Made by a program: the position numbers and the translations under genes
The notes under the pieces: generated by a model
Told to the model about the DNA's origin: nothing
The model's database searches: none
The model's input: the letters and a program-made list of their open reading frames with translations, nothing else
Source: a bacterium
Lineage (GTDB): Bacteria; Patescibacteriota; Saccharimonadia; UBA4664; JBBRNT01
NCBI GenBank assembly: GCA_043767845.1
Contig: JAYUFZ010000024.1
Coordinates: 1-58,795, forward strand
DNA length: 58,795 bases
Reading direction: 5' to 3'
Shown: positions 4,097 to 51,844 of the stretch, piece by piece
How the letters are laid out: every line of letters begins with the position of its first letter
Position numbering within the stretch: the first letter of the stretch is position 1

Positions 4097-6340
4097 ATGA
4101 ATCCAGATACACCTGCTGCCAAACCAGCATCGAGCCCTGAGCCACAGCGCTCAGGCCAACCAAACCCCAGCACTAGCCAGCCTAGCCCAAGCGGCCAACC
4201 AGGCGCCTACCGCCCCAATATTAACAACCGCCCACGCGGCAATTTCCGCCCCCGCTCGCCACGTCCAATGGGTAGTTCGACGAACCCAAATACAGCAACT
4301 GATGCTACGGGCGGCCAGAATGCCGGGCGCGTAGTGCAAGGCGACAGAATTACCAGTATGGCCACTGCCGGCCCGAATGGCATCCTGCCAGCTGGTGGCC
4401 AGGTCAATGGCGGCCGCCCGAACCAAGGTCAAGGCCAGGGTCAAAACAACCGTGGCGGCCAAGGCCAAGGCCAGAACGGCCGCCCACGCCAAGGTGGTGG
4501 CAGCAACCAAACAGCCCGTGGCACCCGACACTCCGGCCCACCCCGCCGCCCACAGGCCCCCACCACACCACAGATCCCAATCAACAAGTCGCCATTCAAC
4601 GGTACTGGCGGCGAGCAGCAAACTCAGATCAAGGAGCGCAAGGCTAATGCCGTGACCCGCGAGAACAAGCTGCGTATTATCCCGCTCGGCGGGCTTGGTG
4701 AAGTCGGCAAAAACATGATGGCCATCGAATATGGCAACGACATCGTGGTAGTCGATATGGGCTTTGCTTTCCCCGACGAACTACAGCCAGGTATCGACTA
4801 CATTATTCCAGACATTACCTACCTCGAGAAAAATAAGCACAAGATCCGCGGTATCGTCATTACCCACGGCCACATGGACCACATTGGTGCCGCTGGCTAT
4901 GTCTTACCTAAAATAAATGTGCCAATCTTTGGTACGCGCCTCAGCCTGGGTATGGTCGCGAAGCAAATAGAAGAATTCAAGCTCCAGACCCAGCCACAAT
5001 GGCGGGTAATGGATCCTGATAAGCACGAGAAGGTGCAGCTGGGTGTCTTTAGTATTGAGCTGATTCGCGTTACTCACTCCATTCCCGACGCCACAGCCGT
5101 AGCCATCAGCACGCCGATCGGCATGCTGATCCACACTGGCGACTGGCGCCTTGACCCAACCCCAACGGACGGACGGATGATGGACATGCCTCGCCTAACC
5201 GAGCTCGGCAAGCAAGGCGTGCTCATGCTGATGAGCGACAGCACAAATTGCGAGCGTATGGGCCGCACACTTTCCGAAGTCGTGCTGGAGCAAACTTTTG
5301 CCGAGCTTTTCCAGATTGCCGGCGGCCGAGTCATCGTCTCAACCTTTGCCAGTTCGATAACCCGTGTGCAGCTGATCATTGACGCTGCCCACGCAGCCAA
5401 CCGCAAACTAGCCCTCAACGGCCGCTCGATGCTGTCCAATATTGAACTAGCCGTCAAGCTGGGCTACCTGAAGGTACCGCAAGGCTTAATCGTAAAGGTT
5501 CAGGATAGCACCCGGCTCAAGGACAATGAGGTCGTGGTACTCTGTACCGGTTCGCAAGGCGAGCCGAACGCCGCGCTATCACGCATGTCGACCGGCGACC
5601 ATCCCCAGATCAAGATTAAGGCTGGTGACTCAATTATCTTCAGCTCTAACCCGATCCCGGGTAATGAAAACTCGGTGACTACCATCGTTGACTCGCTCAT
5701 GCGTGAAGGCGCCAAGGTCTACCAGAATGTAACCCGCGAGATTGATGAGCACGGATTACTGCACGTTTCTGGCCACGCCAGCCGCGACGACATTATCGAC
5801 TTGATGAATGCCGTGAAGCCGAAGTACTTTATGCCCATCCACGGTGAGTACCATATGCTCGTGCGCCATGCCGAGCTGGCCGTCAAAAACGGTTTGCCAC
5901 AAGCCAACGCCTTCGTTATGGATAACGGCGACGTCTTGGAGATTACCGAAACGAGCGCCAAGCGTGGTGAGCGCGTGCCAAGCGGTATTGTACTTATCGA
6001 CGGTGCGGGTGTGGGCGATGTCGAGCAAGTAGTACTGCGCGACCGCCTGACGATGTCGGGTGACGGTATCTTTGTGATCGTGGCGACTGTTGACCGCAAG
6101 ACGGGCAAGCTGCTTACCAGCCCCGATATCATTTCCCGTGGCTTCATCTATATGAAGGATAATGAGGAATTGATTAGCCGGGCCCGGGCCGAGATCCGCA
6201 AGTCGTTCGAAAAGCGGGGCACGGGCGAGCTCATCGACTGGAGCCGTTTCAAGCTGAAGCTGCGCGACGATGTATCCGACCTCCTCTACAAGCGCACCAA
6301 GCGCAACCCGATGATCATCCCTGTAATCAACGAAGTTTAA
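4097..6340 (+). CDS. rnj: ribonuclease J with ~190-aa low-complexity N-terminal extension
   Basis: PLGGLGEVGKN, THGHMDHIG, THSIPD, HTGDW, HVSGH and PIHGE beta-CASP motifs. Confidence 0.97.
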   Translation: MNPDTPAAKPASSPEPQRSGQPNPSTSQPSPSGQPGAYRPNINNRPRGNFRPRSPRPMGSSTNPNTATDATGGQNAGRVVQGDRITSMATAGPNGILPAGGQVNGGRPNQGQGQGQNNRGGQGQGQNGRPRQGGGSNQTARGTRHSGPPRRPQAPTTPQIPINKSPFNGTGGEQQTQIKERKANAVTRENKLRIIPLGGLGEVGKNMMAIEYGNDIVVVDMGFAFPDELQPGIDYIIPDITYLEKNKHKIRGIVITHGHMDHIGAAGYVLPKINVPIFGTRLSLGMVAKQIEEFKLQTQPQWRVMDPDKHEKVQLGVFSIELIRVTHSIPDATAVAISTPIGMLIHTGDWRLDPTPTDGRMMDMPRLTELGKQGVLMLMSDSTNCERMGRTLSEVVLEQTFAELFQIAGGRVIVSTFASSITRVQLIIDAAHAANRKLALNGRSMLSNIELAVKLGYLKVPQGLIVKVQDSTRLKDNEVVVLCTGSQGEPNAALSRMSTGDHPQIKIKAGDSIIFSSNPIPGNENSVTTIVDSLMREGAKVYQNVTREIDEHGLLHVSGHASRDDIIDLMNAVKPKYFMPIHGEYHMLVRHAELAVKNGLPQANAFVMDNGDVLEITETSAKRGERVPSGIVLIDGAGVGDVEQVVLRDRLTMSGDGIFVIVATVDRKTGKLLTSPDIISRGFIYMKDNEELISRARAEIRKSFEKRGTGELIDWSRFKLKLRDDVSDLLYKRTKRNPMIIPVINEV

Positions 6341-16930: not shown

Positions 16931-17062
16931 GATGCCTCCACGGGTCGTTTGAACAGTCGGATTATATAGCTTTTCAAGCTGAAACCACAAATATACTTGA
17001 CGTACGGTATATGTTCGGTTAGTATCTACGTAAGCTAGAAAATAAGCAGGATACAAGATACA

Positions 17063-43269: not shown

Positions 43270-45210
43270 ATGAAGGTGGCTTTTTTCAGATTATCCCGCT
43301 TGCAGTTGGCTACTTTGGCTTTGGCGCTATGTTGCATGCCGTGGCTTCGCGGTGGACGCGATGCCGCCGGCTTGGTTGTTATCTATGCCTGCCTAATGGT
43401 CGGCTTTTTTCTGGCCTGGCGCCTGCTGGAAAGCCACTATTTTCGAATATCAAAACTGGCCTTGTGGGCGATAGCCTTCGGTCTGTATGGTGCAACCTCG
43501 ATACTATGGTCGGTAAATCGCTATGTCACGGTGGTTTGGATATTTGGTTTCGGCCTGGCCTTACTAGCGGCCTTACTGGCCGGGGTGCTAGCCACGAGCA
43601 AGGGAGGCTGGGCAGTTTTTGAGCGTGCTTACCTGGAAATAGCGGCTATCGTCAGCCTGATCGGTATATGGCTGTTCATGACAGCCGACTACGACCGTCT
43701 AACCTCGCTGTTCTACTGGGCGAACCCAGCGGCAACCTTTTTATTGCCTGCTGTGTTTATAGCCACCTGGCGCTTTGTGAAAGGCCGGGGACTGTATAGT
43801 GGCTTGCTCGCAACTGTTATATCATCAGCCTTTGTGCTTACTTTTTCCCGCGCAGCCAGCCTGGTGTTCCTGGCATCAATGATATTATTTTTGGCTTGGG
43901 AGAAGCCCAAAAAAGCCTATTGGATAAATTTTGTGTTCATTGTATTTGCCAGTCTTTTACTTGTTCGCATTGTCGGCCAAGTACGATCTAGCTCGTCGCA
44001 TAGCGCTTCAATTTCTCAAGCCACCCGGTTCAAGGAAGCCATAAAGGGTGAGTCCACAAGTTTAGATGACAGGCTGTACTACTTGCGTAGCGCGGTAGCT
44101 ATCTGGCGCGACTATCCATTGCTTGGTAGTGGCGCGGGCAGCTTCCCTACGATGCATACTCAGTACCAGTATCGGGTTATTAGTGCTGGCAGCAATACTC
44201 ACAATGTCTACGCGCAGTGGGTGAGTGAGCTGGGCTTGATGGGCGCAGTTTTGCTGATTGGCCTGCTTTATGAGCTGCTGACCGGTCTCTATCGGAGAGC
44301 GAAGCAGGACCCCGCCTTGCGCGCGGCAGTCTGCGGGCTGGTAGCTATGCTTTTGCACCTCGGCTTCGACATTGGTGCCAGCTTCCCGGCTGTATTGATG
44401 CTTGCGGCTATACTTATTGGCTACTTATATCAGCCCGGCCCTGTAGCGCATCGTTTGGCGAAGCGCTACCACATCTATTGGCCAGTGGCGGCTTTGATGA
44501 TAATTGGTTTTCTACCATTGCTTGGGTATTACCGGTCGCTTGAATACGCCGCCAGCGCGCAGGCTGCCCAGGACAATGGCGACCTTACTGAAGCAGCTGG
44601 TGACTACCAGGCCGCCCACCTGGAGCTGGTCTACAATCCCGATACCTTGACCGGTGAGGGTATCAATGACTATGTCATGGCTACTAATGGTTTCGAACCA
44701 AAGCTAAATTTGCTCTTTGCCCGCCTGCGAGCTGAGACAGCCATCAAACAAGACCCGCACGACGCTCAGCAATGGTTCTTTTTGGGTCGGGTGGCGCGGG
44801 CGCAGGGTGATATTCGGGTAGCCACAGACGCCTACGTCCAGGCCTTGCGCCTCGACCGTTATAATCATCCGATGTACTATAGCGATTTGGCCGATTACTA
44901 TGTCTATCAAAAGCATATCGGGCTGGCCATTGAGCTGGCCACAAGTGGTCTCAAGCTCTACCCGCCAGAGGTGCTTGCCAATAGGAATCAGGACGAGAGT
45001 TTACAGAGCGGAGTTGGTAATCTGTACATATCCAGGGCCAAAGCCTATATCCAGGATGACCAGTTGGATCTGGCTCGCCTCGATATTACAAGTGCGCTGA
45101 AGGCCGACCCGGCTAATACCAGTGCCAAGCGGCTAGAAGCGATCTTGCCTGCTATGCCTGAGCAGCCGCCGAAGCTATTAGACGGTGCTGGGCAATCATT
45201 AGAATACTAA
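43270..45210 (+). CDS. O-antigen ligase / oligosaccharyltransferase-family membrane protein with C-terminal TPRs
   Basis: Many TMs, TFSR, R..Y...A..IW...PLLGSG.G.F, HN.Y.Q..SELG..G, TPR-like helices. Confidence 0.87.
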   Translation: MKVAFFRLSRLQLATLALALCCMPWLRGGRDAAGLVVIYACLMVGFFLAWRLLESHYFRISKLALWAIAFGLYGATSILWSVNRYVTVVWIFGFGLALLAALLAGVLATSKGGWAVFERAYLEIAAIVSLIGIWLFMTADYDRLTSLFYWANPAATFLLPAVFIATWRFVKGRGLYSGLLATVISSAFVLTFSRAASLVFLASMILFLAWEKPKKAYWINFVFIVFASLLLVRIVGQVRSSSSHSASISQATRFKEAIKGESTSLDDRLYYLRSAVAIWRDYPLLGSGAGSFPTMHTQYQYRVISAGSNTHNVYAQWVSELGLMGAVLLIGLLYELLTGLYRRAKQDPALRAAVCGLVAMLLHLGFDIGASFPAVLMLAAILIGYLYQPGPVAHRLAKRYHIYWPVAALMIIGFLPLLGYYRSLEYAASAQAAQDNGDLTEAAGDYQAAHLELVYNPDTLTGEGINDYVMATNGFEPKLNLLFARLRAETAIKQDPHDAQQWFFLGRVARAQGDIRVATDAYVQALRLDRYNHPMYYSDLADYYVYQKHIGLAIELATSGLKLYPPEVLANRNQDESLQSGVGNLYISRAKAYIQDDQLDLARLDITSALKADPANTSAKRLEAILPAMPEQPPKLLDGAGQSLEY

Positions 45211-47014
45211 GGTCGGCCGGGGTGACGCCCTGGATACGGCCTGCTTGGCCGAGGGTGGCAGGGGAGACTTCTTTGAGGCGGAGGCGGGCTTCGTTGCGCA
45301 GGCCTTTGATCTCGTCATAGGCGATGGCTACCGTCATAGGCGAGTTCTCGAGATGGCTGAGTTTTTCAGCAAAGCGCAGTTGCTTGGCGAAGTAGCCGCT
45401 GTATTTGGCTTCGAGCTCTAGCTGCTCGTCGATCTCTCGGTCGAAGGCGGGGATGTCGAAATCTTGGCGAATCCTTGGCATGTCGATTTCGGGCCGCGAT
45501 AGGTACTGCCAGGCGGAAATTCTTTGTTCATCTATAACCTGAGTAACTTTTTTTAGCTGAACACTAAGTTTGTTCACTTCATCTGATTTGTGCTTTACTC
45601 GAGCCATAGTAGGCTTGTCGATAAGCCCTAATTCGTAGCCGATTTTGGTCAACCGTAGGTCGGCGTTGTCGTTACGTAGGAGCAAGCGATACTCAGCCCG
45701 TGAAGTAAACATGCGGTAGGGCTCGACGTGAATCTTCGTTACCAGGTCGTCGATTAAGACGCCGATATAGGCTTGGTCGCGGCCGAGGGTGAAGGCTGGC
45801 TTGGATTGGGTTAAGCGGGCGGCGTTGATACCGGCGATGAGCCCCTGGGCGGCGGCTTCTTCATAGCCAGTCGTGCCGTTGATCTGGCCGGCCATAAACA
45901 AGCCTTTAGCAACCTTGGTCTCGAGGCTGTTTTTTAATTGATGCGGGAAGAAGAAGTCGTAGACGACTGAGTAGCCATAGGCTAGGAACTTAGCTTTTTC
46001 CAGTCCGGGGATGGTGTGGATGATAGCTTCTTGGAGTTCTGGCGGGAAGGCCAACGAACCGCCTTGGATATACATTTTTTCTTCACTGCGGCCGGTAGGC
46101 TCGATGAAGATCGGGTGCCGGTCACGGTCCGGGAAATTCATTACTTTACGGTCGAGAGAAGGGCAGCTACGTGGGGCGCGCTCAGAGGCCAGGCCATTGT
46201 AGATGGGCGAGAGGGCGAGATTATCAAGGATTAGCTTATGGGTTTCGGGGGTGGTATAAGTGCCATAACAGGGGATTTGATCATCGAGGTTCATTAATTG
46301 TTTGTTGGGGTAGCTGAAGCTGATTGAGCCGGCACTACCTGGGGCAAGCTCCATCTTGGAGTAGTCCAAGCTGTCTTTGGCTAGGCGGGGAGGGGTGCCG
46401 GTCTTGAGGCGGCCGTGCTCGAGGCCAAGAGCAGAGAGGCTGTCGGTGAGGCCAAGGCTCGATTTCTCGTCCATCCGGCCGCCGTCCTTGATAACTTTGT
46501 CGCCCATGATGATCTTGCCGGTCATGAATGTGCCGGTGCAGATAATGACCGAGCCTGCGCCGATATGTGTGCCGTCACCGGTGATGACGCCGGTAATCTG
46601 GCCCGACTTAGAGGTGACTTGCTTGACCTCATCCTCGTAGAACTCTAGGCCATTCATAGCGATCAACTCTTCAAGCATATTGGCGTTATAGGTGCTTTGC
46701 TCGATCTGGGCGCGGTAGGCTCGGACAGCTGGACCCTTTGAGGTGTTCAGCTCCTTCATTTGGATGGCACTAGAGTCGGCAATTTTGGCCATGACGCCGC
46801 CAAGAGCGCCGATCTCGCGGACTAAGTGCCCCTTGCCTGGCCCGCCGATGCTCGGGTTACAGGGGAGGGTGGCGACTTTGGCTAGGGTGGTGGTGATGAG
46901 TAGGGTAGAGGCGCCCAGCTTGGCAGCACTAATAGCCGCCTCGCAACCAGCGTGTCCGGCACCCACCACAATTACGTCGTAATAGTCCGATTGTTTAAAT
47001 ATAGCTTTGCTCAT
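45152..47014 (-). CDS. mnmG: tRNA U34 5-carboxymethylaminomethyl modification enzyme MnmG/GidA
   Basis: GAGHAGCEAA, CNPSIGG, SKGPAV, KTGTPPRL, AGQINGTTGYEEAAAQG, YRMFTSRAEYRL. Confidence 0.98.
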   Translation of the reverse strand: MSKAIFKQSDYYDVIVVGAGHAGCEAAISAAKLGASTLLITTTLAKVATLPCNPSIGGPGKGHLVREIGALGGVMAKIADSSAIQMKELNTSKGPAVRAYRAQIEQSTYNANMLEELIAMNGLEFYEDEVKQVTSKSGQITGVITGDGTHIGAGSVIICTGTFMTGKIIMGDKVIKDGGRMDEKSSLGLTDSLSALGLEHGRLKTGTPPRLAKDSLDYSKMELAPGSAGSISFSYPNKQLMNLDDQIPCYGTYTTPETHKLILDNLALSPIYNGLASERAPRSCPSLDRKVMNFPDRDRHPIFIEPTGRSEEKMYIQGGSLAFPPELQEAIIHTIPGLEKAKFLAYGYSVVYDFFFPHQLKNSLETKVAKGLFMAGQINGTTGYEEAAAQGLIAGINAARLTQSKPAFTLGRDQAYIGVLIDDLVTKIHVEPYRMFTSRAEYRLLLRNDNADLRLTKIGYELGLIDKPTMARVKHKSDEVNKLSVQLKKVTQVIDEQRISAWQYLSRPEIDMPRIRQDFDIPAFDREIDEQLELEAKYSGYFAKQLRFAEKLSHLENSPMTVAIAYDEIKGLRNEARLRLKEVSPATLGQAGRIQGVTPADLSILMIAQHRLIASAAAQA

Positions 47015-47060
47015 TCGGGCGTTATTGTAGCTGAAAACAGCCCGGATTACCAGGCTCAGC

Positions 47061-47103
47061 ATAGAAGGTTACCTTTTTACGCAGAAGAAAGGTAACCTTC
47101 TAT
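47061..47103. repeat. REP/REPIN palindrome copy 1
   Basis: atagaaggttaccttt-N11-aaaggtaaccttctat, perfect 16-bp inverted repeat. Confidence 0.9.
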
Positions 47104-47137
47104 TTACTTTCGGTATTTGTTTGGTATAATCTGGCGT

Positions 47138-47677
47138 ATGGCAAATATTGTAAGGTTTTTCTCGGAGAGCGGCTTCTATCACGTTTATAATCGTGGGGTT
47201 CATTGCGATGTTTTATTCTACGAGGATTTTGACTATCAATATTTCTTGCAACTTATTGGGGAACGTTGCAGCGACTATGGTATTACGATTATTGCTTACT
47301 GCTTAATGCGCAACCACTATCATTTTCTTCTAAGATTAGGCAACAACGACCAAGGAATACGTCATGCTATAGAGCGAGCGACCATGTCCTATGCTCGATA
47401 TTTTAATAAGAAATATCAGCAGTCGGGAAGGCTGTTCCAAGGACCATATCGGTCAAAGGTTGTGCTGAGCGACGAATATCTACTGCATCTCACGCACTAT
47501 ATCCACGCCAATCCTGCCGACTTTTGTGACCCCCTGCGGTATCGCTGGTCCAGTATCACTGCCTATACCAATCGAATAGCGGGCATTGCCAACCCTACCT
47601 ACATTCTAAAAATGCTCGGTAAACAGCCTTACGAACTTGAAGAAAGAAGGTTACCTTCTCGAGCGGAGAAAAGGTAA
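47138..47677 (+). mobile_element. REP-associated tyrosine transposase (RAYT, IS200-like Y1 HUH)
   Basis: YHVYNRG, AYCLMRNHYH (HUH), YFNKKY..SG.LFQG.Y, YIHANP, YRWSS; flanked by palindromes. Confidence 0.93.
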
Positions 47678-47683
47678 CCTTCT
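47645..47683. repeat. REP/REPIN palindrome copy 2 (contains the RAYT stop codon)
   Basis: agaaggttaccttctcgagcggagaaaaggtaaccttct. Confidence 0.9.
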
Positions 47684-47686
47684 AAT

Positions 47687-48028
47687 TTAGCACTGCTTTA
47701 ACCTGCTGAGCTCGTAGCTGATAATTTGGGCCAGTGTGGCTAGCCATACGTAAGATAATATGAGCCCAATTATCCAAAGTACTAAGCAAAAAGCAATCAA
47801 CTGGATAGAAGGTTGTTTACCCGTAAACCACAGGGTATAGGGTACGCCAACGACAAACAGTAAGCCAGCGGCGCTTCCTAAAGTCATTTGTGCAATAGCC
47901 ATCAGCCGCATTCCCAACCGTGCCTGCTTGTAGGAGCCGAAAGTAAGCATGGTTCGGCCAGTTTTAGATGATGTCACTACATCTCTGTCGGAAAGTTGCT
48001 TTAGCATGGAGAGCTCCTTAGTTACCAT
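47687..48028 (-). CDS. hypothetical two-TM membrane protein (start probably ATG 48008)
   Basis: Two hydrophobic segments; AAGGAG RBS before MLKQ. Confidence 0.6.
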   Translation of the reverse strand: MVTKELSMLKQLSDRDVVTSSKTGRTMLTFGSYKQARLGMRLMAIAQMTLGSAAGLLFVVGVPYTLWFTGKQPSIQLIAFCLVLWIIGLILSYVWLATLAQIISYELSRLKQC

Positions 48029-48050
48029 TGATTATCAACGATTTAAAATC

Positions 48051-48090
48051 AAAAAACCACCTTCGTGCTTAATGCAAAGGCGGCGGTTGG
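48051..48090 (-). terminator. terminator after the MOSC gene
   Basis: Minus strand gccgcctttgc...gcacgaaggtggttttttga. Confidence 0.6.
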
Positions 48091-48118
48091 GTTGGCCGGT
48101 GATCGAGGCGGAGTGGAC

Positions 48119-48754
48119 TTATTCCCAGTGATCGCCGATCGGGTGGTTGGCCGGGATCCAGATGGTGACACTATCACCGAGTTTGATCTTGCCGCCACAG
48201 TAGACGAAGCCGACGACGCCGCGCAGATCCTTGCCGGCTTTGGCGAAAGGCTGGGTTAGCTGTCTGTCGGGATAGTGCTCCTGGATGTTGCGATGCGGTA
48301 CAACGCATGGGTTATTTTCGCCCCAAACAGCCAACACCACCTTGCTGTGCTGGATGTCGTTGCCCTTTTTGCGGCCGAAGGTCAAAAGGCTTCCGGGTGG
48401 GAGTTGGCTGATTCCGCCGGCGAATCCACTAAGGATCAAGTTTTCTCCGAGCAGGCCATATTCATTAGTCGTCAAATCGGTGAATCCCATCCTATGCCAT
48501 ATGGCGATCAGCTCCTCAACACTGAGTGCCGAAAATTGGCGCATATTGGCAATGGGCACTTCTTTGCCGACGCCAATATCTCTGAGGACTTCCTCGCGGA
48601 CGTCCGAGAGCCGTGGACCGGCGTGTCGGTCGCCGTACAGACCTTGGTCAACATGGCAGAGTAGGTGGGGGACTGCCGTAGCGACAGACTGCTCATTAAA
48701 ATTGAGCCCAAGCCACACAACTGTGGCGGTTCCTATGATCTTGTGGTCGGGCAT
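48119..48754 (-). CDS. MOSC domain-containing protein
   Basis: GDRH, RQFS.LS.E, LGENL...G, conserved PC, RG....V..GG.I..GD.V. Confidence 0.88.
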   Translation of the reverse strand: MPDHKIIGTATVVWLGLNFNEQSVATAVPHLLCHVDQGLYGDRHAGPRLSDVREEVLRDIGVGKEVPIANMRQFSALSVEELIAIWHRMGFTDLTTNEYGLLGENLILSGFAGGISQLPPGSLLTFGRKKGNDIQHSKVVLAVWGENNPCVVPHRNIQEHYPDRQLTQPFAKAGKDLRGVVGFVYCGGKIKLGDSVTIWIPANHPIGDHWE

Positions 48755-48834
48755 GGCGCCCCTTTCGATTGTCAGGGTTCAGATCTAGCCCAGATTGTAG
48801 CATGGCCACCTGCTTGAGCAAACTTTGGCTAGTA

Positions 48835-48867
48835 GAAAAAGAAGGCCGCCCTCCAGGGAAGGGCGGC
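48835..48867 (-). terminator. terminator after plsX
   Basis: gccgccct/agggcggc stem followed by a U-rich tract on the minus strand. Confidence 0.75.
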
Positions 48868-48880
48868 GATAATGGGCGAA

Positions 48881-49945
48881 TCAAGCTGGCTGGAGCGTAT
48901 CTTCCTCGACAAGGCTTGAAGCCTCGTCCTCGTCGACATTTATTGCAGCCAATGCAATCTCCATCTGACCGATGATGTCCGATTCGTACAGCTCGTAGGC
49001 TTTCAGGCAAGCAGTCGCTATGCCCTCGGCCGTGGCAGAACCGTGCACGATCATGGTGATCCCCTTGAGCCCGAGCAACATCATGCCGCCGTAGGTGTTC
49101 GGATCGTAGATCGCCAGGCGCGCTAGGAGATCATTCATGAGGATCTTGCCTGCCGCTCGATTAGCATCATTCATGTAGATGACCTCGAGCACGTCTTCGC
49201 CAACGGCTTTGGCGCCGCCTTCATTGCCTTTGAGTGCGATATTGCAGTCGTGGCCATCACCAACCACCACATCGGCTACCTGGCAGTGTAAGAGCTGCTT
49301 GGATTCCACATTGCCAACGAACTCCAGGCCGAGTTCTTCGCAAAGTGCGATTAGGAGTGGACGGGTGGCCTTGACCAAGGCATTACCTTTGTCGTCTTCG
49401 GTGCCGATGGTCAGCTGGGCGACGCGTGGCTTGGTAATGCCATAGCGTAGTTGCGCGTAGAGGATGGCAAGCCTGGCAAAACCCGCCAGCATTTGTGGTG
49501 AACAGTCGAGATTGGTACCGCTATCGACCATGATGGTCGGATCGCCGTGCTTATTGGGGAAGGGGGTCGGAACAGTAGCTCGGCGGTAACCTTTGAATTT
49601 GCGGAGCTTGATTTGCGATCCGGCTAGCGTAGCTCCAGTATCACCAGCCGACACATAACCTGCGGCTTGCCCATCGCGCACCAGCTGTGGGCCGACGATG
49701 TGGGCCGACTTGGAGTATTTGCGAATGCTCAGCCCTGGGTCCTTGAGCCCCATCGGGACTACTTGTTCAGCCGAGACCCAGGGCAGCCCAGTCGGTTCAC
49801 AGATTGCCTGAGGACCAGCGAGCAGGATTGGGACGCCAAGCTCGACGGCTCGACGGGCGGCTTTTATAACAAGCTCGGGGCCACCATCCCCACCGCAGAC
49901 GTCGAGTACGACTGGGCGCTTGGGGCGTTGCAAGGTTTCGGGCAT
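48881..49945 (-). CDS. plsX: phosphate acyltransferase PlsX (divergent)
   Basis: LDVCGGD..P, VSAGDTGA, D.G.N, IG.E..KGN, FVGNVE, DVVV.DG..N.ALK..EG, YGG..LLG......HGS; AAAGGA RBS. Confidence 0.9.
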   Translation of the reverse strand: MPETLQRPKRPVVLDVCGGDGGPELVIKAARRAVELGVPILLAGPQAICEPTGLPWVSAEQVVPMGLKDPGLSIRKYSKSAHIVGPQLVRDGQAAGYVSAGDTGATLAGSQIKLRKFKGYRRATVPTPFPNKHGDPTIMVDSGTNLDCSPQMLAGFARLAILYAQLRYGITKPRVAQLTIGTEDDKGNALVKATRPLLIALCEELGLEFVGNVESKQLLHCQVADVVVGDGHDCNIALKGNEGGAKAVGEDVLEVIYMNDANRAAGKILMNDLLARLAIYDPNTYGGMMLLGLKGITMIVHGSATAEGIATACLKAYELYESDIIGQMEIALAAINVDEDEASSLVEEDTLQPA

Positions 49946-50036
49946 TGCTGTCCTTTGGTCGGGTTGTGGGGTACTGATCGGTTGATCTGAGGCCAAGAAT
50001 ACAATTTTTGGCCGATTGCGGCAAGCGTGAGTAATC

Positions 50037-50074
50037 AAAGCCTACCTTCTCACGGGGAAAAAAGGTAACCTTCT
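50037..50074. repeat. REP/REPIN palindrome copy 3 (degenerate left arm)
   Basis: aaagcctaccttctcacggggaaaaaaggtaaccttct. Confidence 0.8.
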
Positions 50075-50105
50075 TTTCACAAGTCCTTTACCCAGCCGAG
50101 TAAAA

Positions 50106-50930
50106 ATGTTAGCCTGCTGGTACTCGTTCTTTGAAAGGTTACGGCTCGTGTATACACAAATTGCTTATGAGGATGCTGTGCAGATGCCATCCACACGGCG
50201 TAATATTCGGATCCTGGTCTGGAATGTTTGGTATCGAGCTCAGGCTGATGAAATCGTTGAAGCTTTAGATTACCATGCCGCGGATGTCTTGATGTTGCAG
50301 GAGCTGACCATCAGTTCCAAATACAATCCCGGAACAAGTCTGCCTAAGAAGATTGCTCATGAGCTGAACTATAATGGGCTTTTTGTGGGCACCCGTGAGT
50401 TCGGTAAACCCGGCGAAACGCGACACCGAGAAGGGATCGCCATATTTTCGCGACTGCCTATTACGAGCACGCGGGTGATTGAGCTGAGTCATGGCGGTAC
50501 GCTACGTGGTTCTGGTAACAGTCGGCGTTGCTACCTACAAGTAGGTATTCATACCCTCAGTGGCATGGGGCTGACTGTCGGCCTGGCTCATTTGTCCTAC
50601 CCATTGCCGGGTGGTATCGGCCGGTCTAGGCGGCGAGCTGAGCTTGAGCAGCTGAAGGCGGCCGTTGCAGGTCACGATAAACGCTTTCTGCTGGCGGGCG
50701 ACTTCAACGACCAGCCAGAGTCCGAGGTCGTGTCTTGGGCAACTGATAGTTTCAAGAACCTCGGTCCGGAAAATAGTCAGGCAAGCTGGCTGGCCTTTAG
50801 TAAGGCAGGGCTAAGTTTCGGCCGGCGCCTTGACTACGCCTTTGGCACGCCCGACCTGAATGCTCTCGGGACGCTCGATTCCCGCTCCGTTTCAAATCAC
50901 AGACCTATCAAGGTGACCATCATCGAATAA
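50106..50930 (+). CDS. endonuclease/exonuclease/phosphatase (EEP) family protein (start probably near 50178-50184)
   Basis: WNV, DVLMLQE, GIAIFSR.P, HL, AGDFND, LDY, SNH.P. Confidence 0.88.
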   Translation: MLACWYSFFERLRLVYTQIAYEDAVQMPSTRRNIRILVWNVWYRAQADEIVEALDYHAADVLMLQELTISSKYNPGTSLPKKIAHELNYNGLFVGTREFGKPGETRHREGIAIFSRLPITSTRVIELSHGGTLRGSGNSRRCYLQVGIHTLSGMGLTVGLAHLSYPLPGGIGRSRRRAELEQLKAAVAGHDKRFLLAGDFNDQPESEVVSWATDSFKNLGPENSQASWLAFSKAGLSFGRRLDYAFGTPDLNALGTLDSRSVSNHRPIKVTIIE

Positions 50931-50931
50931 C

Positions 50932-50965
50932 ACCCCTAGCCGCACTCATGAGGCTGGGGGTTTGC
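50932..50965 (+). terminator. terminator after the EEP gene
   Basis: cccctagcc...ggctggggg followed by tttgcttt. Confidence 0.6.
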
Positions 50966-50986
50966 TTTGCAATAAAAGCGTAATAA

Positions 50987-51026
50987 AAAAGGCTACCTTT
51001 TTGGGGCGGAGAAAAGGTAGGGTTCT
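50987..51026. repeat. REP/REPIN palindrome copy 4 (degenerate)
   Basis: aaaaggctacctttttggggcggagaaaaggtagggttct. Confidence 0.75.
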
Positions 51027-51058
51027 CTTGTCCATCAGACTCCCGTATAATGAACTCT

Positions 51059-51844
51059 ATGCATTATCTCCAAGCGATTTTTTTGGGACTGGTCCAGGGA
51101 CTGACTGAATTCATCCCGGTTTCGAGCTCGGGGCACGTAATATTGGTCGAGCACTGGCTGCACTTTGATGGGGGAGCGGTTTTTGACGTGGCGCTTAATA
51201 TCGGCACGCTGGCCGCCTTACTGCTCTTTTTCTGGCAAGACTTCTGGAATCTGTTTAAAAGTTTGTTCAAGCGCAACGAACATACCCGTATGGCCTGGAT
51301 GTTGGTAATTGCCACCATCCCTGGCGTTATCGCCGGTATTCTCCTGGAGCATGCCGCTAAAACAGTCTTCCGCAGCGATATGCTGGTCGGTATAAACCTG
51401 ATCGTAGTGGCGCTCATCATGGCCTACGCAACCCGCAAAGGCCGCAAGAAGTATGATCTAGAGCATATGACGCCGGAGCGCGCTGGTGTCATTGGTCTCG
51501 CCCAAGCGCTGGCCATCGTGCCAGGAGTCTCACGCTCAGGCATCACCATCTCGGCCGGGTTGCTTGAAGGCTTTGACGCCGTGGCCGCCACTCGCTTCTC
51601 ATTTCTGCTAAGCGCTCCGATCCTGCTCGGAGGCACGCTAAAAGTATTGGCTGAGCACGGCAGTCGGGCGCAGATAAGCGCCAGTCCGGTCCTCTTTTTA
51701 CTAGGTATTATCACAGCCTTCATAAGTGGCTACTGGGCCATTCGCTTCATGCTGAACTACTTGCAAAAACACGGTCTAAATCTGTTCGTCTATTACCGCC
51801 TGGCGATTGGCGCGCTGGTAATTTTCATTGGGCTGAGGCGCTAG
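51059..51844 (+). CDS. uppP: undecaprenyl-diphosphatase UppP/BacA
   Basis: GLVQGLTEFIPVSSSGH, PGVSRSG.T, FSFLL, YR. Confidence 0.97.
   Translation: MHYLQAIFLGLVQGLTEFIPVSSSGHVILVEHWLHFDGGAVFDVALNIGTLAALLLFFWQDFWNLFKSLFKRNEHTRMAWMLVIATIPGVIAGILLEHAAKTVFRSDMLVGINLIVVALIMAYATRKGRKKYDLEHMTPERAGVIGLAQALAIVPGVSRSGITISAGLLEGFDAVAATRFSFLLSAPILLGGTLKVLAEHGSRAQISASPVLFLLGIITAFISGYWAIRFMLNYLQKHGLNLFVYYRLAIGALVIFIGLRR

Follow-up and report, generated by a model that had tools for sequence, protein, structure and literature searches.

At classical RAYT loci the flanking hairpins are inverted, and in the related IS200 the left-end hairpin is a terminator that lies ahead of the element's own promoter; ISDra2 is activated by irradiation, and the Correia elements of Neisseria are miniature repeats that bear promoters. 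RAYTs are portrayed in four reports (PMC3337134, PMC3479197, PMC3390384, PMC3733652) as single-copy genes that are flanked by their cognate REPs, keep conserved synteny and are at times deleted. The 58,795-nucleotide stretch analyzed here (the window) comes from a genome of ~1.06 Mb (G000) that is probably Saccharibacteria-like, and was compared with its sole sister genome (G001) and with that of another family (G007). Its RAYT locus probably (roughly 0.7) represents a resident RAYT/REP system, or "REPtron", whose 5′ hairpin carries a predicted SOS-type promoter and would have been copied to other spacers.

The island lies between two core genes. To the left, the ORF of mnmG (GidA; 45152..47062, minus strand; Pfam GIDA E 6e-144), which is 67% and 66% identical to its orthologs in G001 and G007, respectively, extends to 47062, with a likely start codon at the ATG of 47012-47014; its promoter region (47015-47060) is homologous to the corresponding region of G001. 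REP1 (47063..47101, plus strand), a type-A (5′/LE-type) hairpin with a perfect 16-bp stem, coincides with the left boundary of all sequence missing from G001 and also scores as terminator-like. Next come the promoter of the RAYT gene (47103..47130, plus strand; TTTACT, a 16-nt spacer and TG-TATAAT, with 10/12 matches with TG in a promoter scan) and the gene itself (47138..47677, plus strand), which encodes a 179-aa RAYT-class Y1/HUH transposase (PF01797 E 3e-10) and whose final codons and stop overlap REP2 (47645..47683, plus strand), an intact type-B (3′/RE-type) hairpin situated where the RAYT and membrane ORFs converge. The latter, which encodes 113 aa with two hydrophobic stretches (47687..48028, minus strand), matched no family and has no match in G001; beyond it lie three cargo genes, which encode a MOSC-domain protein (48119..48754, minus strand; PF03473 E 8e-12), a PlsX-family protein (48881..50038, minus strand; PF02504 E 4e-54) and an endonuclease/exonuclease/phosphatase-family protein (EEP; 50106..50930, plus strand; PF03372 E 1e-22). 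The PlsX-family protein falls under the NCBIfam equivalog cut-off (TIGR00182, 182 bits against 243) and, since its database form has 354 aa, translation probably begins at a codon downstream of the first start in the ORF. REP3 (50036..50074, plus strand), between the divergent plsX and EEP genes, is a decayed type-B copy with a mutated left arm, and its arms no longer pair; REP4 (50987..51026, plus strand), another decayed type-B copy with a residual stem of 9 bp, forms the right boundary of the island and adjoins the −35 region of the promoter of uppP (BacA; 51059..51844, plus strand; PF02673 E 1e-78), which has a −10 TATAAT at 51046-51051 and, based on by-eye alignment with G001 and G007, likely starts at 51059.

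This gene content, the four co-oriented palindromes of ~39 nt and the contact of the outer two with the mnmG and uppP promoter regions agree with the initial annotation, whose start for the first palindrome was off by about 2 nt. Its statement that the window contains no further copy is borne out by a scan with a 16-mer arm pattern (up to 3 mismatches), whose 8 matches, against 0.41 expected and a number reached by 0/100 shuffles, all fall inside the four sites. The centre bases are complementary from one arm to the other, as fits a hairpin rather than a direct repeat; taken singly, every arm also forms a palindrome of 15 bp, the outer GAAG/CTTC of which is conserved in G000 and G007. Folding as single-stranded DNA yields −14.1 kcal/mol (z −8.3) for REP1, −13.8 (z −4.8) for REP2, −4.0 (z −1.1) for REP3 and −6.6 (z −2.6) for REP4, so that the decay with distance from the RAYT that had been noted is confirmed locally. 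A loose two-arm search of the genome matched 23 loci, 14 of which share a common core and were retained: the four described above, no more than 3,966 bp from the RAYT, where simple arithmetic predicts 0.05, and ten that are spread over four further contigs, each in an ordinary spacer and some upstream of dnaG, polA, tsaD and cmk. The nine weak loci (C11:301, C14:8150, C17:8035, C18:64669, C20:1374, C23:22582, C26:17331, C32:36114 and C36:40877), which differ by about 4 substitutions in each arm and lack the common core, were excluded.

The assignment of the protein to the RAYT class of HUH enzymes, with the palindromes as its cognate REPs, is supported by its PF01797 score, which exceeds the family cut-off, by invariant residues, by fold and by the distribution of the arms. 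H60 and H62 of the HUH motif (H60-Y-H62) and the catalytic Y121 are invariant in an alignment of 24 sequences, and, as is typical of RAYTs, the protein has a C-terminal extension; its score against the NCBIfam RAYT equivalog is 42 bits, below the cut-off of 80. Sequence search found no solved relative, and an AlphaFold2 model (pLDDT 91.9) has as its best PDB match the E. coli RAYT bound to REP (PDB 4er8; E 2.5e-8, TM 0.65/0.70, 159 columns), compared to TM values of about 0.49 for the TnpA of IS608 and ISDra2. The enzyme is intact and, judging from sequence, would be expected to cleave and transfer strands. By tblastn its gene is single copy in G000, which also has one 33% paralog with its own, different hairpins. 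The 13-mer arm of G000 is present in 1/41 genomes (G000 itself), and the arm shared by G007 and G003, GAAGTCNGACTTC, occurs at 18 sites in G007, at two in G003, both flanking the RAYT, at one each in G011 and G019 and at none in the other 49 genomes; hairpin families go with RAYT presence and RAYT lineage.

An unexpected result is that REP1 is fused to a promoter with the lineage's predicted LexA box, to which LexA would bind; the box (47109-47127) lies within the −35/−10 spacer. The same motif occupies the same promoter position upstream of lexA in 4/4 genomes and is also found upstream of recA, radA, uvrB, comM, rmuC and an IVP-dinB operon, including, in the window itself, a recA promoter (RecA E 2e-140) whose box (17003..17021, plus strand; TTGACG-box-TAGTAT; 24.1 bits) has no neighboring hairpin. 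With a PWM trained only on 15 sites that lack an adjacent hairpin (20.7–30.4 bits), the RAYT box, which is outside the training set, scores 24.6 bits; together, the nine type-A units score 24.6–26.4 bits, within the training range, and account for 9/21 of the strongest predicted boxes of G000 (at least 20 bits). A same-strand box of at least 16.7 bits is located 29–53 nt upstream of 10/10 main-group RAYT genes checked in the order; among random windows of 150 nt, just 0.2% score 15 bits or more. A meaningful RAYT-LexA link was not found in the literature searched. The presence of a predicted LexA box at a recombinase gene is also an unexpected parallel with integrons.

The type-A unit (REP1 plus promoter and box, ~70 nt) occurs nine times in G000, and at the eight other loci is 95.6–100% identical over 66–70 nt, with loop and spacer as well as 11 nt of left flank included. 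All nine copies point into a co-directional gene (0.5^9 = 0.002, by simple arithmetic), and the downstream genes include dnaG, polA, the dprA region, cmk and tsaD. Both hairpin and box are absent from the polA orthologs of G003 and G007, which makes at least the polA copy lineage-specific. Hairpin-plus-box units of G007 are found at the RAYT, at dnaG and at a dinB-like gene; in G001, dnaG has a weaker box (16.0 bits) and no hairpin, so that some type-A sites may be ancestral promoters that were homogenized later. Near-identity of the units could also reflect gene conversion among similar SOS promoters instead of transposition.

Comparison of the mnmG|uppP junction across relatives, as the initial annotation had suggested, revealed variable content: RAYT and four genes in G000, RAYT only in G007 and an empty site in G001, where mnmG and uppP are directly adjacent and no residual hairpin is left. 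The order in G007 is mnmG-hairpin/promoter-RAYT(51%)-hairpin-uppP, with arms that differ from those of G000 in a co-varying manner, and we infer that the RAYT has resided at this junction since before the split of the two families. G003 has a hairpin-RAYT-hairpin unit at another locus, between genes that in G000 overlap by 4 bp. G001, which has neither hairpins nor RAYT, keeps predicted boxes, yet lexA was not found in its assembly.

Variable content of this kind is also expected from an integron-like platform, in which the RAYT would capture, stack and shuffle cassettes through its co-oriented REPs and older cassettes would lie farther away. In line with this idea, the island edges match REP1 (within a few nt, left) and REP4 (within about 20 nt, right), decay grows with distance, the cargo is rare in the order, the enzyme gene, like those of integron integrases (PMC3108266), carries a LexA box, here a predicted one, and E. 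coli RAYT is capable of strand transfer in vitro (PMC3479197). Gene capture is however not supported by the genome-wide map, in which the ten further copies occupy ordinary spacers, some upstream of core genes, nor by enrichment of REPs at the borders of acquired genes: with G001 as reference and all other spacers of at least 60 bp as controls, 12/14 REP spacers are synteny breaks against 74–79% of the others (Fisher p 0.27–0.41), and 9/14 lack a G001 homolog on one or both flanks against 67–73% (p 0.71–0.85). The would-be cassettes are a three-gene block and a single gene that run opposite to each other, decay has left REP3 and REP4 unable to fold, and the cargo, of host-like GC (52–57%) and with no close donor, looks old and native, without close relatives anywhere: plsX is found in 2/53 genomes of the order (at most 38% identity; best outside, 37%), MOSC in 2/53 (in G001 elsewhere, at 36%) and EEP in 11/53 (at most 35%; best outside, 48%). 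No second array with different cargo was found among the 53 genomes, no cassette turnover was seen and no REP-REP junction was detected in public contigs, where a rare one would not show; judged against G001, G006 and G007, the cargo may have been gained here or differentially lost elsewhere. Moreover, Pseudomonas REPs mark old DNA and recent islands are REP deserts (PMC3390384). Overall, we regard this platform as the least probable of the explanations considered.

Scarcely more probable is a composite IS200/IS605-like transposon, with REP1 as its left end and REP2, REP3 and REP4 as alternative right ends, in which the 3.97-kb REP1-REP4 segment or parts of it move, or once moved, by peel-and-paste together with passenger genes. 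The Y1 fold, the co-oriented subterminal hairpins that differ between 5′ and 3′ sides as the IS608 left end does from the right, the G003 unit at a site uninterrupted in G000 and the clean G001 site, as expected from seamless excision, would all fit; but neither gene nor island has a second copy, the outer right-end candidates are decayed, the fold is nearer to the RAYT structure than to the IS608 or ISDra2 TnpA, the flanks of the copies show no conserved target tetranucleotide, and the G007 RAYT, at the same junction without cargo, indicates that cargo changed in place. Unlikely, though less so, is a host regulatory module, whose palindromes would be terminators/insulators or operators on SOS promoters, with the Y1 gene being one more member of the SOS regulon and selection and gene conversion, not the RAYT, keeping the copies alike. 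The palindromic arms with their conserved outer bases, the terminator-like character of type-A hairpins and their position immediately upstream of the −35 element, the hairpin and box of dnaG in both G000 and G007 and, post hoc, the tendency of the driven genes towards DNA metabolism (dnaG, polA, the dprA region and cmk; in G007, dnaG and the dinB-like gene) are consistent with such a role. On the other hand, lexA, recA, radA, uvrB, comM and rmuC have the box without a hairpin, type-B copies carry no promoter, identity through the loop, spacer and left flank is not expected from operator selection, the hairpin families follow RAYT presence and lineage, and the boxes of G001 persist without hairpins or RAYT.

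In the preferred reading of a resident RAYT/REP system, the enzyme gene is bracketed IS200-style by two co-oriented hairpins, REP1 (type A) and REP2 (type B), and from the LexA operator in its promoter the enzyme is predicted to be produced in the SOS response, a state in which its substrate, single-stranded DNA, is abundant. The enzyme may copy its hairpins in trans. REP3 and REP4 are type-B copies, old and decayed, that occupy the next two spacers outside operons; since copies made in trans would gather near the RAYT gene and persist only in spacers, the neighboring genes would merely seem partitioned. These four genes are possibly old accessory genes of the lineage, acquired or retained beside the RAYT, whose arrival would require no RAYT chemistry. 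The 5′ unit of hairpin and LexA-box promoter would recently have been copied to eight more spacers, where it may drive dnaG, polA, the dprA region, cmk, tsaD and others, and by this copying the REP system would have become the source of a large share of the predicted SOS-type promoters of G000.

Like the RAYT/REP systems of E. coli and Pseudomonas (TnpA_REP, PDB 4er8; REPINs), of which the E. coli enzyme is the best structural match, G000 has a Y1/HUH gene in single copy that contains the HUH and Tyr motifs and lies between hairpins of its own family, a further, dissimilar RAYT with another family, hairpins in spacers genome-wide and a chromosomal position that is conserved across related lineages and missing in some relatives. 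It differs in having only 14 copies instead of hundreds, in that these are singlets without a 5′ GTAG tag rather than inverted REPIN doublets, in flanking hairpins that are co-oriented, as in IS200/IS605, and not inverted as at classical RAYT loci, in a protein under the equivalog cut-off, and in a 5′ hairpin that is fused to a LexA-box promoter and copied together with it. Its host, with a ~1-Mb genome, belongs to a lineage outside the phyla listed in the part of PMC3733652 that names RAYT hosts.

With IS200/IS605 elements (IS608, ISDra2 and IS200), the locus shares the Y1 HUH fold, co-oriented and non-identical subterminal hairpins at both gene ends, the occurrence of the unit elsewhere in G003, at a site that is intact and empty in G000, and a seamless empty site in G001; unlike them, only its hairpins are multi-copy whereas the whole element is single copy, its fold scores a TM of 0.49 against 0.65 to the RAYT structure, and its protein has the RAYT-typical C-terminal extension. 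Integrons (IntI, attI/attC, Pc) resemble it in their folded single-strand sites between genes, a recombinase gene at one end of the array, adjacent accessory genes and, where intI is SOS-controlled, a LexA box at the recombinase promoter (predicted in G000); however, the G000 enzyme is a HUH Y1 nuclease rather than an integrase-family tyrosine recombinase, its "cassettes" are multi-gene, run in both directions and presumably have their own promoters, and its sites are also genome-wide, with the distal ones decayed and no cassette turnover observed. Finally, mobile promoters and Correia elements are likewise short, near-identical repeats with an outward promoter before unrelated genes, but the promoter of G000 is that of the transposase itself, joined to a RAYT-type hairpin; because the type-A unit includes a predicted LexA operator, its copies would, in contrast to Correia-type mobile promoters, carry SOS control along.

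Four co-oriented hairpins of about 39 nt, REP1 to REP4 (47063-47101, 47645-47683, 50036-50074 and 50987-51026), separate the gene blocks between mnmG and uppP, both of which lie outside the array. Their shared orientation, claimed in the initial annotation, is confirmed, and the hairpins are non-random: when three mismatches are tolerated, a 16-mer pattern for the arm has eight matches in the window, every one within REP1-REP4 (0.41 expected by chance; 0/100 shuffles reach eight). Folded as single-stranded DNA, REP1 (-14.1 kcal/mol, z -8.3) and REP2 (-13.8 kcal/mol, z -4.8) form strong hairpins; REP4 (-6.6 kcal/mol, z -2.6) retains a 9-bp stem, and the arm pairing of REP3 (-4.0 kcal/mol, z -1.1) is gone. 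The gene content first listed between the palindromes also stands, with a Y1_Tnp gene (RAYT) flanked by REP1 and REP2 and a cargo, up to REP4, of a membrane-type ORF of 113 aa with two hydrophobic stretches and MOSC, PlsX-family (plsX) and EEP-family genes.

The RAYT protein is a distant branch of the RAYT family. It scores 40.7 bits against Y1_Tnp (PF01797; cut-off 23, E 3e-10) and 42.1 bits against the NCBIfam RAYT equivalog NF047646 (E 7.6e-11, under the 80-bit cut-off), and H60-Y-H62 and Y121 are invariant across a 24-sequence alignment; many homologs bear the JGI label 'REP element-mobilizing transposase RayT'. A PDB sequence search with the protein returned spurious Kelch-design matches only, and since these include no real solved relative, a fold search was needed. 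Its AlphaFold model (pLDDT 91.9) is best matched by 4er8, the E. coli RAYT-REP complex (E 2.5e-8, TM 0.65/0.70, 159 columns), followed by IS608 and ISDra2 TnpA (TM about 0.49). The closest relatives in the scanned genome and metagenome contigs reach at most 41% identity; those in the protein database reach 54-59%, on short contigs only. The gene, with a GC content of about 43%, has one copy in the source genome (G000) by tblastn, besides a paralog of 33% identity at C32:4262-4774(-), where C-numbers denote contigs of this genome. This second Y1 gene has its own distinct hairpin family, with GAAAAGATCAGACC arms, at about eight loci (C5:2305; C16:6297-6387; C16:15998; C19:18021; C22:20778; C28:22010-22067; C32:4168, 4818-4837). 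It is divergent from uvrB, whose promoter contains a predicted LexA box, and the same arrangement of paralog beside box occurs near 865 kb in G007, a complete genome from a different family of the order.

The G000 assembly comprises 1,055,769 bp in 36 contigs at 52% GC, the window being contig C24. Of the 23 loci picked up by a loose search for two arms, 14 with a common core were kept and nine weak, chance-like matches discarded. Ten copies thus lie outside the window, at C8:44995, C13:2534, C16:3950, 29907, 34000, 35851, 38290, 43855 and 53567, and C25:857. By a crude ORF call all 14 are intergenic, across five contigs, and they fall into two types. In type A (9/14 copies, including REP1) the hairpin is followed directly on its 3' side by ATTTAC(T/A)TTCGGTATTTGTTTGGTATAAT, giving a unit of 66-70 nt with 95.6-100% identity between copies; six of these copies have an 11-nt left extension in common, and the borders of the unit are placed 11 nt 5' of the hairpin and directly behind TATAAT-G. 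Type B (REP2, REP3, REP4, C16:34000 and C16:38290) has a different loop and lacks the promoter, and all its copies except REP2 are decayed. The copy number is low and all 14 are singlets, not REPIN/BIME doublets; inspection by eye of both feet on both strands showed no GTAG or CGTC tag in any copy. RAYT-type REPs are defined by a 5' GTAG (or CGTC) tag and by REPIN/BIME pairing (PMC3733652, PMC3479197). No Rfam family matches the hairpins or the island, that is, the REP1-REP4 segment. Seven of the copies share one 50-kb stretch (within C16:1-60000) that is elsewhere syntenic with C1:70-130 kb of G001, the sister genome from the same family. Several of these seven adjoin either small blocks lacking a G001 counterpart or a two-gene block, C16:36706-38174, whose G001 orthologs lie on a different contig.

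Among the 53 genomes of the order compared, seven, G000 included, encode RAYT orthologs at E <= 1e-30. In G007 the order of elements is mnmG, hairpin plus promoter, RAYT (51% identity), hairpin and uppP, without cargo. The hairpin arms themselves differ, G007 having GAAGTCNGACTTC and G000 GAAGGTWACCTTC. The G000 hairpin 13-mer occurs in 1/41 genomes, G000 alone. The exact G007-type 13-mer has 18 sites in G007, two in G003 and a single one in G011 and in G019, and is absent from the remaining 49 genomes; a wider pattern, AGAAGTCNGACTT, with at most one mismatch gives 78 arm matches in G007 against nine in the control. Both G003 sites flank the RAYT gene of that genome, and G007 and G003, the only genomes with the G007-type arm at multiple sites, are the two with the closest RAYT orthologs. 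The REP family accordingly follows the RAYT lineage in both presence and sequence variation. In G001, the sole other genome of the family, mnmG is adjacent to uppP, and homology to G000 stops about 3 nt before REP1 and restarts near the uppP -10. The interval therefore supplies the empty site and the variable content looked for there, being empty in G001, occupied by RAYT without cargo in G007 and by RAYT plus cargo in G000. G006 also has the mnmG|uppP junction without RAYT. Within its spacer of about 190 bp (L022:2275-2470) lies a perfect 10-bp inverted repeat of unrelated sequence, CTTATTGCAA / TTGCAATAAG, perhaps the remnant of a further hairpin family. The hairpin-RAYT-hairpin unit of G003 sits between orthologs of two G000 genes which share a 4-bp overlap there, so at least one move of the unit has taken place. 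Its residence at mnmG|uppP probably predates the G000/G007 split, because the divergence of RAYT (51%) resembles that of its neighbours (48-66%).

The 3' flank of the type-A hairpin is the best promoter of the region in a promoter scan (TTTACT, 16 nt, TG-TATAAT), and its spacer holds a motif that recurs elsewhere, with 11 matches in G007 (control 1) and 11 in G040 (control 0). This motif lies at the same position upstream of lexA in 4/4 genomes (G000, G003, G007 and G040), and also upstream of recA, radA, uvrB, comM, rmuC and the IVP-dinB operon, with G007 counterparts at recA, comM and dinB; at recA it is present in G000, G007 and G001. The recA promoter within the window (16994-17025; box 17003-17021, TTGACG-TACGGTATATGTTCGGT-TAGTAT) has no adjoining hairpin and serves as comparator for the REP1 promoter. 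A position weight matrix was trained on 15 sites without adjoining hairpin, taken by coordinate, which span 20.7-30.4 bits; the nine type-A sites score 24.6-26.4 bits on it, inside the training range. At a threshold of at least 13 bits G000 has 47 sites, against 13-22 in five shuffles, and of the 21 sites reaching at least 20 bits nine are type A and seven are training sites. Moreover, all ten main-group RAYT genes (one each in G000, G003, G007, G025, G039, G041 and G044, three in G040) are preceded at 29-53 nt by a box on their own strand that scores 16.7-31.2 bits, a feature of 0/5 paralogs or distant homologs; among random 150-nt windows, just 0.2% score as high as 15 bits. From its position upstream of lexA, recA and SOS genes, together with the matrix and RAYT-gene box scores, we infer that the motif is the LexA operator of the order and RAYT a conserved SOS gene. 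The predicted operator of the RAYT promoter, common to lexA and recA, overlies the core promoter. A study of the SOS network of Patescibacteria (Environ Microbiol 2017) is cited in PMC8565304 and in PMC7739468, the latter listing it among cases of LexA recognising a direct repeat. In the G001 assembly no lexA was detected by PF01726 or by tblastn with G000 LexA, encoded at C18:53152-53772, and the gene is either in an assembly gap or recently lost; strong LexA-type boxes are still present upstream of recA, radA, comM and uvrB in this genome. The hairpin was also considered as a tandem transcription-factor operator, each arm being itself palindromic. This was set aside as the principal interpretation: the centres of the two arms complement each other (T/A, G/C, A/T), which suits a hairpin rather than a direct repeat, and no hairpins accompany the core SOS genes.

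Every type-A unit (9/9) is aimed into a co-directional gene or RNA, which by our own arithmetic has a chance of 0.5^9 = 0.002. The downstream features are the RAYT gene, dnaG, polA, cmk, tsaD, an MBL-fold gene, a SIMPL/DUF541 gene, an SLT-like gene and a conserved structured element ahead of dprA. In G007, hairpin-plus-box units stand at RAYT, dnaG and a dinB-like polymerase; polA lacks both elements in G003 and G007, and the box at G001 dnaG is weak (16.0 bits) and has no hairpin. The most economical explanation has the 5' part of the RAYT unit, hairpin plus SOS promoter, either being copied to new spacers or homogenising similar promoters. The dprA-upstream element, of about 215 nt, is conserved in five genomes of the order (G000, C8:45040-45320, equivalent to L036:10040-10320; L108:2331-2620(-); L168:1201-1497; L169:2371-2660(-); L167:2365-2653(-)). 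RNAalifold predicts 56 pairs for it, 17 with compensatory changes, and no Rfam family matched; in G000 a type-A hairpin and LexA-box promoter are aimed into it.

The initial annotation had read the RAYT/REP set as an integron-like platform for gene capture or shuffling. That reading fails the genome-wide tests run, the ten further REP copies being intergenic on four other contigs and the 14 REP spacers not enriched at synteny breaks, and its odds are low. Borders of acquired genes were assessed by comparing the whole of G001 with 1,131 crude ORFs (613 with a match) and spacers of at least 60 bp. Synteny breaks occur at 12/14 REP spacers and 74-79% of others (Fisher p 0.27-0.41), a comparison of little power because the diverged G001 keeps only 21-25% of such spacers as conserved adjacencies; a flank without G001 homolog is found at 9/14 REP spacers and 67-73% of others (p 0.71-0.85). 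In Pseudomonas, REPs are characteristic of old DNA, and islands of recent acquisition form REP deserts (PMC3390384). Three occupied spacers plus REP1, with just five spacers in the island, would be the pattern expected of local accumulation. Hairpins at gene-block borders beside RAYT are not by themselves evidence of cassette capture. No IntI tyrosine recombinase is found in 45-52 kb, where the sole recombinase-like gene is Y1_Tnp. Logan contigs of four runs, which by nature cannot show rare excision products, contain no joints within 47000-51100 and none across REPs; the only joints, at 45725-46098, fall within conserved mnmG sequence from other organisms. Related-strain contigs carry pieces of the island cargo, and in runs X2-X4 short contigs bear pieces of MOSC, plsX and EEP with a few differences.

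The cargo consists of old accessory genes, either gained in this lineage or lost in others, and not of recent imports. Its GC content (52-57%) is genome-like, and plsX (2/53 genomes of the order; best match in the order 38%, in G007 at another locus, and outside it 37%), MOSC (2/53; best in the order 36%, in G001 at another locus) and EEP (11/53; at most 35% in the order, 48% outside) have only distant relatives. The segment 47000-51100 has no counterpart in plasmid or phage collections, and PADLOC assigned none of the five island proteins to a defence family.

In summary, the locus is an unusual RAYT/REP system, with low-copy singlets, co-oriented flanks, no GTAG tag and a very small genome, and it is predicted to be LexA-controlled, its 5' hairpin carrying the SOS promoter along. 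In the most far-reaching reading, DNA damage would lift LexA repression of RAYT, and the enzyme would then cut and rejoin single-stranded DNA at its hairpins. One outcome would be the pasting of the 5' hairpin and its LexA-box promoter before new genes, rewiring the SOS regulon, of which type-A units already make up 9 of the 21 strongest predicted boxes; to this rewiring alone we assign a probability of roughly 0.4. Another would be the stacking or removal of accessory genes between 3'-type hairpins beside the enzyme. That both outcomes together constitute an SOS-triggered, HUH-based genome-plasticity device, functionally analogous to the SOS-controlled integron through other chemistry, seems to us very improbable. 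The conservation of the predicted operator across all ten RAYT genes in very small genomes, and the movement of the 5' hairpin, together with a predicted LexA promoter, to positions ahead of replication and repair genes, bear on the question of the role of RAYT/REP systems in their hosts. If both hold, RAYT expression would be tied to the state in which its single-stranded substrate exists, and REPs would have a concrete host-level effect as insulated, damage-responsive promoters. Simple tests would also open up, four natural hairpin variants of graded integrity being at hand.

Compared with known systems, the locus resembles RAYTs in its Y1 HUH fold, HUH motif and catalytic Tyr, in its single copy and differing paralog with its own repeat, and in a gene flanked by cognate REPs that are also dispersed between genes. 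With IS200/IS605 elements it shares co-oriented subterminal left- and right-end hairpins without terminal inverted repeats (G000, G007 and G003) and seamless empty sites (in G001, and in G000 at the G003 locus); unlike those elements, which occur as several whole copies, repetition here is limited to the 70-nt 5' unit and the hairpins, and the gene is single-copy. In integron arrays the cassettes are single, co-oriented and for the most part without promoters, each is closed by a folded site, and content varies between close relatives, whereas the G000 island holds a three-gene minus-strand block and one plus-strand gene, its distal sites (REP3 and REP4) are decayed, and its content differs at the level of families and genera only; the predicted SOS control of the enzyme gene is one parallel with integrons that has been gained.
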